This document shows positions 2,868 through 44,587 of a stretch of 44,587 bases of DNA, piece after piece. The translations under genes were made by a program, and so were the position numbers. The notes below the pieces were generated by a model, which ran no database searches, was not told the origin of the DNA, and worked only from the letters and a program-made list of their open reading frames with translations. The DNA comes from a virus. The stretch is from the UHGV virus genome UHGV-0201915; one strand, written 5' to 3'. Position 1 is the stretch's first letter. Each line of letters opens with the position of its first letter.

Positions 2868-2910
2868 CCCTAGCCGAAGCTGTAACTTCGACTGGGGTAT
2901 TTTTTTAAAA
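2868..2910 (+). terminator. Intrinsic terminator (plus-strand orientation) between two minus-strand genes
   Basis: 12-bp stem (CCCTAGCCGAAG / CTTCGACTGGGG, one mismatch), 6-nt loop, then TATTTTTTTAAAA. The U-tract is on the plus strand only. Confidence 0.55.
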
Positions 2911-3612
2911 CACGACTTTCCCAATTATTCTAATCTGTTCCGGCGAGACGACTCTATCTTCATATAATTCGTTTATAGAGCGTAGAATAATCGATTGATT
3001 TTCATAATCTTTAAATACTTCCTTACACGTAACACCGTCACCGTCTAATTCTACAATAGCAATTTCTCCGTCTTCCACGTCTGGTTGTTCCTTAACAAAT
3101 ACAAATTGTCCATTTCTGATTACTGGCTCCATTGAATCTCCTATAATAGGAACGGCAAAATCAGCATTACTTGGAACCCTTTCAAATTCTTCTTCCTCTA
3201 CAACTGTATCGCCATAAACTAATTCAGTCGGGTTGGCGGCAGAAGCTGAATTTTTGATTGTCGGAAGTTTTTCCTTTTTAGGAAAGTGCACCACGTTGCT
3301 ATTTTGTTCTTCAAGTTGCTGTTCAGCAAAGTTGTAGACTTTTGTTTGTCTTGGTTTTTCTAATTGATTGTAGATTGTTTCAATGGAAGGAACAGCGGAG
3401 TTATTGTTTTTCGATAAATCCTTAGTCATTAAATCATCAATATCTACTTTAAATATTTTTGCTATGTCGTTCAAGGTGCCTATCCTCGGAGTATATTTTC
3501 CTTTTTCCCACTCGCTGATAGATGAAGAACTTTTTCTTCCTAGCATTTCAGCTAGTTCTAATTGTTCCATATTCTTTTTTTCTCTTAGAAACTTCAAGTT
3601 TTTAGAAAACAT
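2905..3612 (-). CDS. cI-like repressor: N-terminal XRE HTH plus C-terminal S24 LexA-like peptidase
   Basis: The HTH region reads LREKKNMEQLELAEMLGRKSSSSISEWEKGK. The S24 domain has GDSMEP...GEIAIVELDGDGVTCKEV (catalytic Ser and Lys). The probable start is the internal ATG after the GGAGGTG RBS; the ORF track extends to 3621. Confidence 0.9.
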   Translation of the reverse strand: MFSKNLKFLREKKNMEQLELAEMLGRKSSSSISEWEKGKYTPRIGTLNDIAKIFKVDIDDLMTKDLSKNNNSAVPSIETIYNQLEKPRQTKVYNFAEQQLEEQNSNVVHFPKKEKLPTIKNSASAANPTELVYGDTVVEEEEFERVPSNADFAVPIIGDSMEPVIRNGQFVFVKEQPDVEDGEIAIVELDGDGVTCKEVFKDYENQSIILRSINELYEDRVVSPEQIRIIGKVVF

Positions 3613-3645
3613 TTCATTCACCTCCTTATTTTTATTATAACACCG

Positions 3646-5567: not shown

Positions 5568-5807
5568 ATGACAGATTTAGTCATAAACGCAAAGTTAATC
5601 GGAGTAGAAGAAGCTACGGCTAAAGCAGAACGGTATGTCGAACTATTAAAAGAAGCCAAATCGTTGGCGGACGAATTGGCTTCAATGGAATTTGAAATTG
5701 GTATTAAACAAGCAACTGATTCTTCACAAGAAAGCATTATCCCTCTTGACGAAAAATCAATTACAAAATCAAGCGACTTGCTTACTCGTTCACTAAAAAC
5801 TCTTTAA
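5568..5807 (+). CDS. Hypothetical protein
   Basis: 80 aa read from the ATG after the AGGAGAGAA RBS (the ORF track begins at 5511). Confidence 0.4.
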   Translation: MTDLVINAKLIGVEEATAKAERYVELLKEAKSLADELASMEFEIGIKQATDSSQESIIPLDEKSITKSSDLLTRSLKTL

Positions 5808-39887: not shown

Positions 39888-39920
39888 AACGCCAACTAAT
39901 GGTGAGGGGAGGTGAGAATA

Positions 39921-40127
39921 ATGCAAAATAAGACGTTTGAAATTTTGAAATGGGTGGCCGCAATTGTCATTCCTGCGCTGGCGACATTTGTTGGTGTGGT
40001 AGGAAAGGCGGTTAATTGGGAGTACACCGATATCACGGTAATCATTATCACAGCGCTAGGCACTTTTTTGGGAACCGTTTTGGGGGTATCAAATCGAACA
40101 TACAAGATGTTTTCAGCAGATGAATAG
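39921..40127 (+). CDS. Holin (phiLC3 / phage_holin_1 family)
   Basis: [31 protein letters not shown]... with two TM segments. Start taken after the GGGGAGGTGAG RBS. Confidence 0.85.
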
Positions 40128-40137
40128 GAGAGAATAC

Positions 40138-41433
40138 ATGAAAAAGAAAATTATTGTAGGAGCTATTGTAGCTCTTTTTTTGTTGCCGATTTTTCCAAGT
40201 ACAGTACAAGCGGCGAAAGGGGATCAAGGCGTTGACTGGGCTGTATATCAAGGAGCACAAGGGAAATTTGGGTATGGCTCGGATAAATTTTCGATTAGTC
40301 AAATCGGTGGATACAATGCTGGTGGTTTGTACAATCAGTGGACTTATTCTAGTCAAGTAGCATCGACGATCGCACAAGGCAAACGAGCGCATACCTATAT
40401 TTGGTATGACACGTGGGGAAGTATGAGTATTGCAAAAACAACAATGGATTACTTTTTGCCTAAGATTCAAACGCCGAAAGGGTCAATCGTAGCGCTTGAC
40501 TTTGAACATGGTGCTTCAAGCAACAAACAAGCCAATACAGAAACCATTTTGTATGGCATGCGGCGAATTAAACAAGCCGGTTACACTCCGATGTATTATT
40601 CGTATAAACCATTCACGCTTCAGTATGTGAACTATCAGCAAATTCTAGCGGAGTTCCCTAACTCGTTGTGGATGGCTGCCTATCCGAATTACAATGTAAC
40701 GCCAAAACCTGTCTGGAGTGTTTTTCCGAGCATGGAAGGCGTAGCAATCTATCAGTTTACATCTACGTATGTCGCTGGTGGCTTGGACGGTAATATTGAT
40801 TTGACAGGTATTACAGATAACGGCTATAACGGAGCTATCAAAGACGATGACGGCAAAGTTACTGTGAAGCCTGATACTGAAACGCCTGCGATTGATCAAG
40901 GTCAGCAAGCGAACGAAACGCCTAAGAATGACATCAAAGCTGGATTCAAAGTTAAAGTGAACTTCTCTGCTTCTACTTGGTCAACCGGCCAAGCGATCCC
41001 TCAATGGGTCAAAGGCAATAGTTACACCGTTAAGGAAGTAAGCGGAACGAAAGTATTGCTCGATGGCATCATGAGCTGGATCAATCGCAAGGATGTTGAA
41101 ATCTTGCAAACGACCACTCAAACGCCAAGCACTACTACATCGACACATATTGTTCGTTCGGGTGAGACTCTATCAGGTATTGCTACTAAGTATGGGACAA
41201 CATATCAAGCGTTAGCGAGCCTAAACGGACTAGCTAATCCGAATTACATTTATATTGGTCAACAACTGAAGGTTAGCGGAACAGCGTCAATTAGTCGAAT
41301 ATACACTGTAAACTATGGTGAAACTCTATCAGATATTGCAGCTAAACTCGGTACGACATATCAGGCATTGGCTCAAAAAAATGGTATTTCGAATCCAAAT
41401 TTGATTTACTTGGGTCAACAATTAACATGTTAA
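40138..41433 (+). CDS. Endolysin with N-terminal signal peptide: GH25-like muramidase + SH3-like domain + 2x LysM
   Basis: Cleavable signal peptide [25 protein letters not shown]. Catalytic region [12 protein letters not shown]... Two C-terminal LysM repeats ([29 protein letters not shown]... and [29 protein letters not shown]...). Confidence 0.85.
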
Positions 41434-41527
41434 AAAACGATTGTAATTAAATGATTAAAGAGTTATAGTAAAATTGTAAGTTACCATAGCTTACTTTTTC
41501 TTTCATAACTAAGTTTCATCTTGATAG

Positions 41528-41559
41528 CAACCAGTCGTGTGCGAGCTGGTTGTTTTTTT
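41528..41559 (+). terminator. Intrinsic terminator after the endolysin gene
   Basis: CAACCAGTCG...CGAGCTGGTTG stem followed by TTTTTTTG. Confidence 0.7.
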
Positions 41560-41587
41560 GTGGAACTTAGAAACATGAGTGTATCAT

Positions 41588-41616
41588 TTGCAAAGAAATC
41601 GGTTTCTAGGTAACAT
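41588..41616 (+). promoter_or_regulatory. Candidate promoter (TTGCAA-17-TAACAT) upstream of the hairpin and tRNA-like element
   Basis: The spacing is exact; the -10 is weak. The annotated ORF 41579..41764 in this region is probably spurious. Confidence 0.25.
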
Positions 41617-41653
41617 CTACTCTATTGGGAAGTCACTCGCCCATAAAAAAAGG

Positions 41654-41706
41654 GAACGTCAGATACAGTTACTTGGGGAAGTGGACTGTGGGGAAGATCT
41701 GACGTT
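41654..41706. other. Long-loop hairpin: perfect 11-bp stem GAACGTCAGAT/ATCTGACGTTC with a 31-nt loop containing a nested ACAGT/ACTGT stem and TGGGGAAG repeats
   Basis: Read from the sequence. U-rich tracts lie on both sides (minus strand: CCTTTTTTTATGG). Candidate bidirectional terminator or att-associated structure. Confidence 0.5.
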
Positions 41707-41754
41707 CTATTTCTTTATTGTAACACGTTTAAAAAATAATAATACTCATTTAAA

Positions 41755-41826
41755 GTACCCTTAGTTCAATTGGTAGAATACTCCGGTTCATATCGGAAGA
41801 TGCGGGTTTGAGGCCTGCGGGGTACG
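41755..41826 (+). tRNA. tRNA-like remnant (72 nt): good acceptor, D- and T-arms; defective 8-nt anticodon loop (TTCATAT, CAT-like)
   Basis: Acceptor GTACCCT/GGGGTAC, D-arm GTTC-AATTGGTA-GAAT, T-arm GCGGG-TTTGAGG-CCTGC. The anticodon stem CTCCG/CGGAA has a mismatch and an 8-nt loop. No CCA follows. Possible pseudo-tRNA or att-site tRNA fragment. Confidence 0.3.
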
Positions 41827-42078
41827 TAGAAAATTTTAGTCATTAAAAAAGAAATACTTATTTTAATAGGACACACATAGGTAAGTGATGATTTACATAT
41901 TTAATATTTTCATAAATGTCAAGATTTATCTCCAAGATTAAGCGTAACTATTGATTAACAGTATTTAGAATGATATATTTGGGTTGACAAAAACGATCGC
42001 AGAGATAATCTGTGTTACGTTTCTTTTTGGTATATTTAAATATAGGTGTTATTCTTATATTTTTGGAGGGGATATACA

Positions 42079-42269
42079 TGAGAGCTTTAATCGCTAAAAA
42101 TGCTGTATGTTTTAACGAAAAGGAATACAGAGACTTCGTTAAAAACGTAGAAAGTCGTAAGATTTCAAAAGAAAGAGAACAAGAATTGAAAATGGTTTCT
42201 AAAAGGTTTAATCAAGCAAAAAAATTGCACGGGGAAACCTCTTTGAAGGGGCTATTGGTTGTAAAGTAA
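42079..42269 (+). CDS. Small protein, putative antitoxin of the GNAT-toxin pair
   Basis: 63 aa from the ATG after a GGAGGGG RBS (the ORF track begins earlier at 42012). Its stop sits 1 nt before the toxin ATG (TAATATG). Very AT-rich island. Confidence 0.45.
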
Positions 42270-42270
42270 T

Positions 42271-42834
42271 ATGATCGAGCCTGAGTATTCGATTATTCCT
42301 ATTAATTCACTGATAGAAACTGAACAAATAAAATCTTTTACTTGCGGTACTGAAGACGAGGAAATAGAAATTGATAATTATTTAAAAAATCAAGCACAAT
42401 CTTTTGATAAAACAGGGATTTCAAAAACTTTTTTATATATGAAAGAAAAGAAGCTTGTAGGCTTCTTTTCTCTTTGTACATCAGAAACAAAAGTGACACA
42501 TAAATTTAAAAAAGCCAAAAAAAATAGTCAAAAAACATTTAGCTTAGAAAAATCACTAAGCATCTATCCCACTATAGAATTAACGTATTTTGCAATAAAG
42601 CATAGTGAACAAAATAAAAAAATAGGAACCAATATGATGTTCGCTGTTTTAGAAATGCTTTATTACAACGTGTATCTTTATGTAGGTTTTATTATGGTTA
42701 CTTTGAAATCAAGAGACTCTTCAAGTGAGTTTTACAAAAAGATGGGATTTGACTATCATACAACTAAGAGCGGTAATGATAATCTCATGGCTTTGACAAT
42801 AACGGATATAGAAGCTATTTTGGGTATGGAGTAG
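42271..42834 (+). CDS. GNAT-family acetyltransferase, putative type II toxin (TacT/AtaT-like)
   Basis: 187 aa. GNAT motif A-like LTYFAIKHSEQNKKIGTNMMFAVLE (Q-x3-IGT) and a C-terminal FYKKMGF. Tightly coupled to the upstream small ORF. Confidence 0.55.
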   Translation: MIEPEYSIIPINSLIETEQIKSFTCGTEDEEIEIDNYLKNQAQSFDKTGISKTFLYMKEKKLVGFFSLCTSETKVTHKFKKAKKNSQKTFSLEKSLSIYPTIELTYFAIKHSEQNKKIGTNMMFAVLEMLYYNVYLYVGFIMVTLKSRDSSSEFYKKMGFDYHTTKSGNDNLMALTITDIEAILGME

Positions 42835-42934
42835 TGTATTAAGACCTCTAGACTAAGCTGTTTTATCTATTGCACATGTAAGCGTTTCATTGTATACTCT
42901 AATTACTAACAACCTAACATTTTTTTCATGATTA

Positions 42935-42966
42935 GTAGCACTCGTTAATTCGGGTGCTACTTTTTT
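42935..42966 (+). terminator. Intrinsic terminator after the GNAT gene
   Basis: GTAGCACTCG-ttaatt-CGGGTGCTAC stem followed by TTTTTTG. Confidence 0.65.
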
Positions 42967-42986
42967 GTTTACAGGCTAAACTAAAA

Positions 42987-43012
42987 AAAGCCCGAAAATT
43001 CAGGCTTTTTTA
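42987..43012 (-). terminator. Intrinsic terminator for the convergent minus-strand lipoprotein gene
   Basis: AGCCCG-aaaattc-AGGCT hairpin flanked by A/T runs. On the minus strand it reads AGCCTG...CGGGCT followed by TTTTTTT. Confidence 0.5.
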
Positions 43013-43021
43013 TGATTAATA

Positions 43022-43771
43022 TTAGATTATATTATAGTGGTCTAAGTAAAAGGCTGGAACTTCGTTCGTCGCTCCTGAAACTGTCTCATATTCGAGCGGC
43101 TTTATATATCTCACCCAAACTCTTAATTCGTCATCGTTAAGAATTTTCGTCGTAAGCTCTTTATTTTTAATCAACAAAGTAATGGTTACGTTCTCATCTG
43201 GAGAGGGTGTTACTGTTGCTAAGTATTGTGTTATATCCTCATCTCCATCTGAATTCACTTGGAAGATCTTAGCGACAAACGATTGTTTCACACCTTTATA
43301 TTGTTCAGGGTCACGCATCAAATCATCTAGAGACGTTTTATCGACATAGCGTGTTGAATCGAATTCATATTTTTCCTCGCTGCTACTCTCAGAACTAGAA
43401 ACCGACTCCTTTTTCTTTGAACTGCTATTTTCAATTTTAGAGACTTCCGTGTACTCTATTACAAACGATCCTGCAACGCTTTTTACATTTGTTACCTTAA
43501 CAATTAAAGAGTCTCCGTCATCAACTTTTGGATTACTCTCTGATACAAAGTTAAGGTGTTCACCTGTTTGAATATTATATCCAAAAGCACTGTTCGGAAC
43601 TAATTTATCAACAGTGATGCTGACAGTTTTACCCTCAATATCTTCACCATCATTGAGTGCGGATTCAGCTTCTTTGGTAGAGTAATCAGCTTTAGCTTGA
43701 TCTCTCCCGCCACATCCTGACAAAAAGATACCCAAAATTAATATAGACATGAACCCAACAATCTTTTTCAA
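43022..43771 (-). CDS. Lipoprotein of unknown function (probably host or island gene)
   Basis: Signal peptide with lipobox (LSGC). Ser/Glu-rich linker and a C-terminal beta-rich domain. Confidence 0.65.
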   Translation of the reverse strand: MKKIVGFMSILILGIFLSGCGGRDQAKADYSTKEAESALNDGEDIEGKTVSITVDKLVPNSAFGYNIQTGEHLNFVSESNPKVDDGDSLIVKVTNVKSVAGSFVIEYTEVSKIENSSSKKKESVSSSESSSEEKYEFDSTRYVDKTSLDDLMRDPEQYKGVKQSFVAKIFQVNSDGDEDITQYLATVTPSPDENVTITLLIKNKELTTKILNDDELRVWVRYIKPLEYETVSGATNEVPAFYLDHYNII

Positions 43772-43858
43772 AATTTCCCCTTCTTTCGATAAAATAATTA
43801 ACTCATAATTATTTTACCATTCGATGAAAGAAAATAAACTGATATTTTATCTTCATAT

Positions 43859-44586
43859 TCATACAATAATTTTCCCACGATCTATTCGATAACTAAAAAT
43901 AGCGATTTTGCTATTATTCCAATAAAAAAGCTGCTTATTTTTATGGAGAAGCAAAATCGAGAATAGTGTTTTTATGCTCATAGGTGATTTTCTATTCTGG
44001 CGAAAAAAGACAAGATTCCCTTCATCATCAGGCTTTGCAGTAGTTAGTTGTACTAAAGTTCCGCCTAGTCGAGTATAGATACCCTTATACTCTTCATGAA
44101 AAGGATTCGCAGTTAATTGTTTTAATAGTACGCCAGCCTTCATTTCATACCTTCTTTCGTTGGAACCTACTTGATTCAAATTCTAACATGATACTAGTTT
44201 TGCCGACAACTGCATATTTTTTAATAATGAATTGTTTTCTACTATTGTAGTCACCAGCCACTACGACTCGCATTCCGTTCTCAACATCTGCCAAAAAAGA
44301 TAGTGAGTGTGAGGCAATAAGACATGACTGATTATTCAGCTTAAAATAGACAAGGGGGCGTTCTGAAAGCTTTAATATTTTAATACTAGTCACTAAACCA
44401 CTCATGCTCATCATTTAAACCACTCCCATATCTAAGAATATAAAAATCGTCATTGTGAAAGGCGTTTGCTTTCATACAGTAAAACTCAAAACATTTTTCT
44501 CCGACCTCAAAAATGCTATTTGGTCCGAAATCCCACAATAAGTCTTGTAATGTAGAAAAAGGTATGTAGCCTTGTTCGTAGAGCAA
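43859..44586 (-). pseudogene. Probable frameshift-disrupted gene (three consecutive overlapping out-of-frame ORFs)
   Basis: ORFs 44386..44586, 44145..44414 and 43859..44179 lie on the minus strand with 29- and 35-nt overlaps in different frames. This is the classic appearance of two frameshifts, or of sequencing errors. It may continue past the window edge. Confidence 0.3.
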
Positions 44587-44587
44587 A

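Follow-up and report, generated by a model that had tools for sequence, protein, structure and literature searches.

The virus genome UHGV-0201915, a stretch of 44,587 nucleotides that is referred to here in its entirety as the window, carries an AT-rich cassette on its plus strand (41833..42968), 3' of the lysis genes. In this cassette, a gene encoding a 63-residue protein (42078..42269, +) is followed by a gene encoding a 187-residue GNAT protein (42271..42834, +). We consider it probable that the two genes form a toxin–antitoxin (TA) system, in which a putative aminoacyl-tRNA-acetylating GNAT toxin would be held in check by a putative mini-antitoxin. Toxicity, tRNA substrate, neutralization and biological role are all inferred from sequence comparisons and structural models. 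That the cassette serves specifically in defence or in addiction is suggested with less confidence than its assignment as a TA pair. A coupled pair of this kind had been proposed in an original prediction made from the nucleotide sequence.

The cassette consists of a promoter, a leader, the two genes and a terminator. Its G+C fraction is 0.294, whereas the window has a median of 0.388 and the endolysin gene a value of 0.42, and 41833–42968 is the lowest-GC 1.1 kb span anywhere in the window. The AT-rich island that the original prediction had placed after the lysis cassette is therefore real, and the limits proposed for it (41830–42970) nearly equal those obtained here by comparison. The limits 41833–42968 follow from the span shared with two other assemblies (L001 and L005, which share 41457–42968 with the window at 97% identity) and from the boundary set by a tRNA-like element described below. 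After 42968, L001 resumes at the backbone position 44175 and L005 next matches 477–691.

The 63-residue open reading frame (ORF) starts at ATG 42078, one nucleotide before the start first assigned to it (42079), and ends with the stop codon TAA at 42267–42269. A Shine–Dalgarno (SD) sequence, GGAGGGG, is located at 42065–42071, 6 nt 5' of the ATG, and a single nucleotide (T 42270) separates the stop codon from the ATG of the GNAT gene (42271), whose own stop codon ends at 42834. Apart from the shifted start, the earlier description of a small ORF with a strong ribosome-binding site ending 1 nt before the GNAT gene thus stands. No comparable SD sequence was found for the GNAT gene itself, which fits translational coupling to the 63-residue ORF. 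A longer reading of 85 residues from GTG 42012, returned by some gene callers, is not conserved. The generic layout of a type II TA system is present: the genes are small, adjacent, co-oriented and paired, and are found on phages of Enterococcus, Listeria and Latilactobacillus.

The 187-residue protein matched Pfam Acetyltransf_10 with 29.3 bits (gathering cut-off 23.6), in agreement with its earlier assignment as a GNAT protein. Acetyltransf_7 and Acetyltransf_1 fell just under their cut-offs, and PHROG 1758 ('acetyltransferase') was matched at 1.8e-29. NCBIfam gave no match for either protein of the pair. Homologues of the GNAT are rare, with 11 clusters of 55–100% identity in 5.8 billion proteins; no relative was found in the plasmid collection at an E value of 1e-5 or better, and none carrying the family patterns was found among the GTDB species-representative genomes. 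A search of all PDB sequences with the single sequence using phmmer returned four chains only, all of which are TacT-type toxins (E values of approximately 0.02–0.05). A family profile was built from the 11 homologues, and its best PDB matches were AtaT (1.3e-6), TacT (2e-5) and KacT (9e-5), followed by AtaT2, GmvT and TacT2/3. The 15 best matches were all TA toxins (1.3e-6 to 0.1), and GNAT proteins from outside TA systems appeared from approximately 0.1 (0.099) upward. The profile alignments are full length (residues 18–160), with both the N-terminal F-x-C-G motif and the β3 motif G-F-F-S-L-C inside the aligned span. When an AlphaFold2 (AF2) model of the protein was used as the query in Foldseek, ranks 1–38 were all chains of TA GNAT toxins (AtaT, TacT1–3, KacT, GmvT, AtaT2 and ItaT; 3e-9 to 1e-6).

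Sixty-two positions are invariant in the GNAT family. They include Phe23, Cys25 and Gly26, which align with the F-D-C-G motif of AtaT. Tyr155 (in E-F-Y-K-K-M-G-F) aligns with Tyr144 of AtaT (in T-F-Y-K-S-L-G-F), a residue for which structures of the Y144F variant have been deposited (PDB entries 6gtp, 6gtq and 6gtr) and for which the KacT equivalent is Tyr145; it is invariant in the 11 homologues and in a wider alignment of nine sequences. These sequence and model comparisons support the grouping of the protein, as a distant member, with the tRNA-acetylating TA toxins TacT, AtaT and KacT and not with housekeeping acetyltransferases. Since TA toxins were the best matches both by profile and by Foldseek, the protein does not cluster with RimI or the antibiotic acetyltransferases, and the likeness to TacAT, AtaRT and KacAT that had been proposed from the gene organization is now also seen in phmmer, profile and structural searches.

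The 63-residue protein was not recognized in family searches. Pfam searches with 14 mini-proteins gave chance matches only, with no PF08681 and no ribbon–helix–helix (RHH), CopG, Arc or MetJ family; PHROGs gave no match for the protein; and searches of PDB sequences with the protein and its profile gave chance matches, with no antitoxin at an E value below 10. Foldseek found nothing with the model of the protein, which is to be expected of a short peptide if, as is probable, it folds only when bound. By eye, the segment A-V-C-F-N-E-K-E-Y-R-D-F-V-K-N-V-E resembles R-V-F-N-F-N-D-E-Q-Y-E-E-F-I-N-L-L-D of TacA1. For profile–profile comparison, a DUF1778 alignment was prepared from six PDB-verified antitoxins (TacA1, TacA2, TacA3, AtaR, KacA and 7f37_C). 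Distant mini-proteins from Listeria phage vB_LmoS_293, Latilactobacillus phage TMW 1.1397 P1 and the IMG/VR contigs L021, L033, L035 and L036 were added to the query family, and the P-x-P linker typical of DUF1778 is present in some of the distant members. With eight mini-proteins, hhalign matched the six antitoxins at a P value of 1e-3; with 13, residues 3–33 were aligned without gaps on residues 45–75 of TacA1 (P value of 3.6e-4). Against the C-terminal half of DUF1778 alone the P value was 1.3e-4 (probability 54%), whereas against the RHH half alone the score was 6.4 and the P value 0.73. The observed score of 23.9 was not attained in any of 300 column shuffles, a lenient null, whichever profile was shuffled (null mean 7.9, standard deviation 1.5, maxima 12.7 and 19.5).

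The aligned segment can be compared with the neutralizing region of KacA in the KacA–KacT–DNA structure (PMC6698736), which consists of βB (52–56), αC (57–70), a linker (71–74) and αD (75–86). In that structure βB pairs with β3 of the toxin at Cys69, the residues Asn57, Glu58 and Ser60 form hydrogen bonds to the toxin, and Trp61, Val64, Ala67 and Ile68 pack on toxin phenylalanines; the R77A substitution abolishes neutralization (PMC6698736). In the gapless alignment, residues Asn13, Glu14, Tyr17, Phe20 and Val24 of the 63-residue protein are paired with Asn57, Glu58, Trp61, Val64 and Ile68 of KacA, respectively, and the invariant Arg33 is paired with Arg77. The AF2 model has a disordered N-terminus, a helix at 14–25, a loop and a helix at 31–51, and the two helices match αC and αD of KacA. 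C-terminal antitoxin peptides alone have been crystallized on their toxins (7ak8_G, 7ak9_C, 6gtq_C, 6gtr, 9ilr_B and 9ils), from which it follows that the C-terminal segment is sufficient for toxin binding; a length of 63 residues leaves no room for both an RHH domain and a neutralizing domain. The comparisons are suggestive of a neutralization-domain-only antitoxin that would be homologous to the C-terminal half of DUF1778. The remark in the original prediction that the small protein does not obviously look like the usual DUF1778 RHH antitoxin is borne out, as only the neutralizing part was matched by hhalign.

The small ORF, for which conservation was the point to be checked, is kept with the GNAT gene in every relative found. 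It encodes 54–67 residues (60–66 in the close family) and lies directly 5' of the GNAT gene at a distance of −7 to +5 nt. In the Enterococcus gallinarum pair, in which the GNAT is 72% identical, the small ORF likewise has 63 residues and the gap is likewise 1 nt; in more distant relatives (55–63% GNAT identity) the gaps are 0–2 nt. A profile search with the small protein gave ten clusters (versus 11 for the GNAT) in the same 5.8 billion proteins, located on GNAT contigs, and an exhaustive phmmer search with the 63-residue sequence against 1.84 billion representatives gave four relatives only. Thirteen positions are invariant (Met1, Asn13, Phe20, Arg33, Glu36, Leu37, Val40, Ser41, Arg43, Phe44, Ala47, His51 and Gly52). 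Between species, nonsynonymous divergence (pN) is 0.20–0.40 for the small gene, for which four homologues were compared, and 0.16–0.28 for the GNAT gene, against a synonymous divergence (pS) of 0.62–0.85 that is near saturation. The 63-residue ORF is a real gene under purifying selection.

These values bear on the possibility that the pair is a decaying or inactive TA remnant that is carried passively in a recombination hotspot. The GNAT has a non-canonical motif A, the adjacent tRNA-like gene is clearly degenerate and the family is rare (the approximately 11 clusters mentioned above), all of which could be read in this way. Both ORFs are intact, however, with their length kept across 55–100% identity; pN (0.16–0.40 over both genes) is well under pS; 62 positions of the GNAT and 13 of its partner are invariant; and the promoter, the SD sequence and the coupling are conserved. 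We regard an inactive remnant as extremely unlikely.

A consensus scan gave a candidate σA promoter (41951..41979, +), consisting of TTGATT, a 17 nt spacer and the extended −10 element TG-n-TATATT. This block is identical in E. avium and E. gallinarum, whereas the flanking sequence has diverged. The leader of approximately 90 nt has folding z-scores of −2.6 and −3.4 and contains two hairpins. The first (41998..42014, +), found in a scan for terminator-like structures, resembles a terminator or attenuator, and conserved GTTACGTTTCTTTTTG follows it; in E. gallinarum the same stem is formed from differing sequences (CGCAGA/TCTGTG versus ACGTGGA/TCCATGT). The second lies just before the SD sequence (42028–42076). 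The leader of L009 corresponds to 5722–5800 of that contig. An analogous hairpin followed by a T-tract is present in the leader of L014. To judge from its predicted structure, the leader looks like an attenuator that would hold expression low.

The leader and the helices of the small protein can also be read differently, with the 63-residue protein as a small RHH-type transcription regulator instead of a neutralizer and the GNAT as harmless or controlled by expression only. A hairpin or dyad does lie just 3' of the promoter, and an N-terminal extended segment followed by helices at 14–25 and 31–51 is also the topology of an RHH protein, as in the RHH domain of KacA (βA 5–13, αA 14–28 and αB 31–51; PMC6698736). 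Against a regulator of this type are the hhalign result, in which the C-terminal half of DUF1778 was matched and the RHH half was not, the lack of any RHH, CopG, Arc or MetJ match in Pfam among the 14 family members, and the leader stem, which covaries between species and so fits an RNA structure better than a conserved operator. We hold this reading to be very unlikely and retain that of a neutralizing antitoxin.

An intrinsic terminator (42934..42968, +) with an 11 bp stem and a 6 nt loop (hairpin 42934–42961) followed by a T-run was identified by a terminator scan. It is the first terminator past the GNAT stop codon, and it ends at the boundary of cassette homology (42968). A promoter-like element (42869..42898, +; TTGCAC, 17 nt, TATACT; consensus scan) precedes it 3' of the GNAT stop codon, however, so that the terminator that the original prediction gave to the pair may also serve a second, short transcript. 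The spacing of this element from the terminator hairpin, which begins approximately 35 nt further on, suggests a small-RNA-like unit of approximately 60 nt (42869–42968). The segment 42841–42898 is common to contigs with other cargo or none. Several tandem units of like design with related hairpins (GCAC..CGGGTGC) occur in L048, L049 and L052, including four tandem promoter/short-RNA/terminator units in L048 (reverse strand, approximately 760 nt after the tRNA-like element); the window holds one copy.

If the pair acts as a TA system, the lysogen would transcribe the cassette at a low level from the extended −10 promoter through the structured, terminator-like leader. Translation would begin with the antitoxin and would reach the toxin only through re-initiation across the 1 nt gap. 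The antitoxin would be built from a short strand that adds to β3 of the toxin, a hydrophobically packed helix, a linker and a second helix with the invariant arginine, and it would wrap around the toxin and block acetyl-CoA binding or dimerization, as in KacA and AtaR. Were the supply of antitoxin to fail, or the antitoxin to be removed, the GNAT would transfer an acetyl group from acetyl-CoA to the α-amino group of charged tRNA and translation would stop. The likely use would be abortive infection or superinfection exclusion in defence of the lysogen, or prophage addiction; a defensive role is suggested only because of the neighbours that occupy the same slot in related phages. As the small protein has no RHH DNA-binding domain, autoregulation of the operon in the manner of TacA, AtaR or KacA is not predicted. 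No third gene able to act as a regulator is present in the cassette, and the leader may be an attenuator that takes the place of the DNA-binding domain lacking in the putative antitoxin.

Several points weigh against the assignment as a TA pair. The identity of the GNAT to solved toxins is remote (13–23%; single-sequence E value of approximately 0.02) and the AF2 model used in Foldseek is of low confidence (pLDDT 58, pTM 0.56). Motif A, contained in LTYFAIKHSEQNKKIGTNMM (residues 104–123), reads Gln114-N-K-K-I-Gly119, that is Q-x-x-K-x-G and not Q/R-x-x-G-x-G/A; the glutamine and the last glycine are invariant in the family, and the position of the first glycine is occupied by K, Q, R, H, N or G among relatives, the glycine being kept in the Listeria phage and L021 homologues. 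PADLOC (PADLOC-DB v2) gave no match for either protein and has no model for the pair. The similarity of the small protein to DUF1778 is weak (overall hhalign probability 37–54%), and the shuffles with which it was assessed are, as stated, lenient. No regulator is evident for the pair, which is atypical of a type II TA system. GNAT toxins have been described as almost absent from Firmicutes, and a 'true TA clade' of GNATs has been defined by association with DUF1778; TA-like GNAT loci in which the upstream ORF is short, divergent and free of known domains were placed outside it, and other functions were left open for them (Bikmetov et al., 2022; PMC9177977).

Alternatively, the GNAT might not be a self-toxin and might act on another substrate to the advantage of the phage or lysogen, in anti-defence or on a host protein or a small molecule, with the small protein as an adaptor, chaperone or specificity factor. 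AcrVA5 is reportedly an acetyltransferase with an anti-defence function. The region from the endolysin gene to the phage attachment site (attP) of Firmicute prophages carries many kinds of accessory gene and not just TA systems, 'different physiological functions' are allowed by Bikmetov et al. for GNATs with non-canonical upstream ORFs (PMC9177977), and the replaced glycine of motif A and the PADLOC result can be counted on the same side. The closest solved relatives by profile and by fold, however, are all tRNA-acetylating toxins, and other GNATs follow only at a clear distance; the F-x-C-G motif of the toxin family and the tyrosine aligned with Tyr144 of AtaT are invariant; in hhalign the partner matches specifically the toxin-neutralizing segment of the cognate antitoxins; and TA systems typically show such strict coupling with the antitoxin gene in front. 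A GNAT with another substrate is in our view unlikely, and the assignment as toxin and mini-antitoxin is preferred.

The pair is exchangeable cargo inside a phage genome, located between the endolysin gene and the attP/integrase side. The slot that it occupies has a conserved left flank (41457..41832, +) containing the endolysin terminator, an 11 bp inverted repeat and the tRNA-like element. A search of IMG/VR with the tRNA-like core gave 25 viral contigs (L037–L061), in which the left block (41457/41498–41832) is 84–99% identical. Homology stops at 41812–41848 in all 25, mostly at 41828–41834, only a few bases from the 3' end of the tRNA-like element. Where it is regained, it restarts at 44175, in the gene for an 89-residue backbone protein; the right flank that starts here (44175..44587, −; the lysogeny-side backbone genes for 89- and 70-residue proteins) is common to 13 of the 25 contigs. 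The intervening slot (41833–44174) is hypervariable, with at least 14 different contents in the 25 related contigs. These include Abi_2 (two types), a SocA/Panacea antitoxin with its partner (two types), PIN, DUF3800, an SDH/ClpP-like protease and several unknowns; in L039 the slot is empty and the integrase follows directly. The pair of the window itself was found in none of the 25. One of them (L037; IMGVR_UViG_3300012836_000004) carries, 115–866 nt after the tRNA-like element, another pair of a 63-residue protein and a 188-residue GNAT that is 21% identical; its genes overlap by 7 nt, the GNAT has the FDCG and FYKSLGF motifs and the small protein has an N-x-x-x-Y…RF..A pattern. This suggests that cassettes of this type have been acquired more than once.

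The slot of the window holds further genes. A 249-residue protein that belongs to no Pfam family and carries a lipoprotein signal (…LGIFLSGCGG…) is encoded at 43022–43771 (−), convergent with the TA pair and separated from it by a bidirectional terminator at approximately 42989–43011; this gene is not present in L001 or L005. A gene for a 94/106-residue protein also lies in the slot, on the other strand, like that of the 249-residue lipoprotein.

In the E. gallinarum contig L010, a tRNA-Met gene, the pair and the backbone genes lie inside a prophage, the right end of which abuts a tmRNA gene that is taken as the integration site. The layout of endolysin gene, small ORF, GNAT gene and integrase gene is likewise found in Listeria phage vB_LmoS_293 and in Latilactobacillus phage TMW 1.1397 P1, the latter of which was sequenced from virions. 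Together with the closed window, these cases identify the pair as phage cargo and not host DNA. A placement of the pair in host DNA beside an attR tRNA gene was accordingly rejected, as the ends of the window join seamlessly in another assembly; it is also opposed by the host junctions in other assemblies, which lie beyond the gene for a 132-residue protein, and by the tmRNA gene at the end of the L010 prophage. The original prediction had offered a prophage-end moron or a separate island beside the tRNA-like remnant, and both descriptions apply: the cassette is exchangeable cargo whose left edge is set by the 3' end of the tRNA-like element, and it is carried as part of the phage genome.

The tRNA-like element (41755..41826, +), which forms the left boundary of the variable cargo, is a tRNA-Met(CAU)-like remnant with a 6 nt anticodon loop (UUCAUA). 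ARAGORN reported it as 'tRNA-??? (ca)', and the Rfam tRNA model scored it at 34.6 bits (gathering score 29). Its T-loop reads TTTGA in place of TTCGA, a change seen in the copy of the window only. At the equivalent place, an intact tRNA-Met(CAT) gene is present in E. gallinarum phages (5467–5542 in L009–L013), and in L003 (4672–4745) an intact copy occurs as well as the remnant. When 27 copies are compared, the first two-thirds from the 5' side do not vary and the 3' part is mosaic, with either GCCTGCGGGGTAC(A/G) or TCCTACA(A/G)GGTACA, the latter being the 3' end of genuine tRNA-Met, and with a duplication in L041. On account of its mosaic 3' part, the element looks like a recombination junction. 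The possibility that the tRNA-Met-like gene serves the toxin as its target, as a decoy or as a replacement tRNA was considered and rejected as unsupported: 24 phages have the tRNA-like block and lack the GNAT, and the distant pairs of L014–L017 and of the Listeria and Latilactobacillus phages occur without the tRNA. Further 5', a perfect 11 bp inverted repeat (41653–41663 and 41697–41707; GAACGTCAGAT … ATCTGACGTTC) lies in the block kept in 25 phages. Its 33 nt loop holds repeated (T)GGGGAAG motifs (region 41620–41695), and a similar sequence, ACTTGGGGAAGTG, is found 5' of tRNA-Met in the E. gallinarum phages.

The window is the genome of a temperate siphophage with a host of the E. avium type, and in NCBI the identical GNAT protein is attributed to an E. 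avium metagenome-assembled genome. The late operon ends in a lysis cassette of Dp-1 holin (39912–40127) and GH25+LysM endolysin (40120–41433), 3' of which follow the tRNA-like element, the 63-residue ORF, one nucleotide, the 187-residue ORF and the hairpin with its T-run. On the lysogeny side are genes for the integrase (710–1846, −), an Ltp-type lipoprotein (2257–2814, −; PF07553, 4.6e-35) and an S24/helix–turn–helix repressor (2905–3621, −). The last 1.5 kb and the first 2 kb of the window are contiguous in L002 (100% identity over 3.5 kb), and the two ends of the window cut through a gene for a 70-residue protein (44386–44587 joined to 1–11, −); it follows that the window, at 44,587 bases, represents a complete phage genome, circular or circularly permuted. 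The junctions with host DNA seen in other assemblies are located past the gene for the 132-residue protein, at window positions of approximately 461–478 or 634, between this gene and the integrase gene. The Ltp-type surface lipoprotein, whose gene adjoins that of the integrase, is a candidate superinfection-exclusion protein, and on this basis the phage would carry several lysogen-protecting genes. A tRNA-Lys(UUU) gene was found by ARAGORN in mid-genome (19140–19217, +).

Of the TA families that target translation, GNAT/DUF1778 systems are some of the most thoroughly studied, and they are defined partly by their RHH antitoxin. If the present assignment is correct, neutralization would here be uncoupled from autoregulation of transcription, toxin inhibitors could be modelled on a minimal peptide scaffold, and GNAT loci with upstream ORFs that had defied classification would be explained. 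A wider proposal, which we offer tentatively and with more doubt than conviction, is that the 54–67-residue proteins encoded 5' of phage GNATs are an unrecognized antitoxin class derived from the DUF1778 neutralization domain alone, without a DNA-binding domain. This might explain the 'orphan' TA-like GNAT loci left open in 2022. It would also mean that Firmicutes do have tRNA-acetylating toxins, which would be carried by temperate phages in exchangeable cassettes for abortive infection or superinfection exclusion, within a defence hotspot that has a tRNA-Met-like recombination junction at its border. The well delimited Enterococcus phage slot, with its Abi, Panacea, PIN and unknown genes, is a practical place in which to seek new enterococcal defence genes. 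In the literature on phage-borne GNAT antitoxins or GNAT antitoxins without a DNA-binding domain, no description of the window family was found.

Prophage and satellite defence hotspots in which variable cargo lies between conserved flanks have been described for P2 and P4 elements. The slot described here likewise has conserved flanks (the tRNA-like block on the left and the gene for the 89-residue protein on the right) around cargo types that exclude one another, among them Abi_2, Panacea-type TA and PIN genes. It differs in its lineage, that of Enterococcus siphophages, and in its left flank, a tRNA-Met-like remnant with a mosaic 3' end.

Among TA-like GNAT loci, those outside the 'true TA clade' (PMC9177977) have short upstream ORFs without a predictable DNA-binding domain, as in the window. 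The short ORFs were left unexplained in that study, whereas those of the window family show specific similarity to the neutralization half of DUF1778. The family thus fits the description of the short-ORF loci of Bikmetov et al., to which it is likened by description only, and may offer an explanation for them. The DUF4065(Panacea)–GNAT clade C of the same study is a precedent for a GNAT toxin that has changed its antitoxin partner (PMC9177977).

The closest known systems are AtaT–AtaR (Escherichia coli O157), TacT–TacA (Salmonella), KacT–KacA (Klebsiella), GmvT–GmvA and ItaT–ItaR, in which the antitoxin gene likewise comes first and is tightly coupled to the GNAT gene. The GNAT of the window is homologous to these toxins over its full length, including F-x-C-G, the β3 motif G-(F/Y)-(F/Y)-(S/T)-L-C and the catalytic tyrosine in (F)Y-K-x-(L/M)-G-F; its partner shows a suggestive alignment with the βB–αC–linker–αD neutralization segment, and the pair is carried on a mobile element. 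The antitoxins of these systems have approximately 88–99 residues, compared with 63 here, and the small protein of the window lacks the N-terminal RHH domain and is not recognized by the DUF1778 model. Unlike in the GNAT/DUF1778 systems, autoregulation by conditional cooperativity is not expected without the RHH domain. In this comparison, the motif A glycine is replaced only on the side of the window cassette, and the characterized systems are chromosomal or plasmid loci of proteobacteria or mycobacteria, whereas the present pair is from a Firmicute phage. The 63-residue protein may be regarded as roughly a natural version of the C-terminal antitoxin peptides that have been co-crystallized with toxins (39 residues of TacA1 in 7ak8, TacA3 in 7ak9, AtaR 44–88 in 6gtq and 6gtr, and a GmvA fragment in 9ils). 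Those peptides are laboratory truncations of full-length RHH antitoxins, whereas the 63-residue protein is the product of a native, conserved gene.

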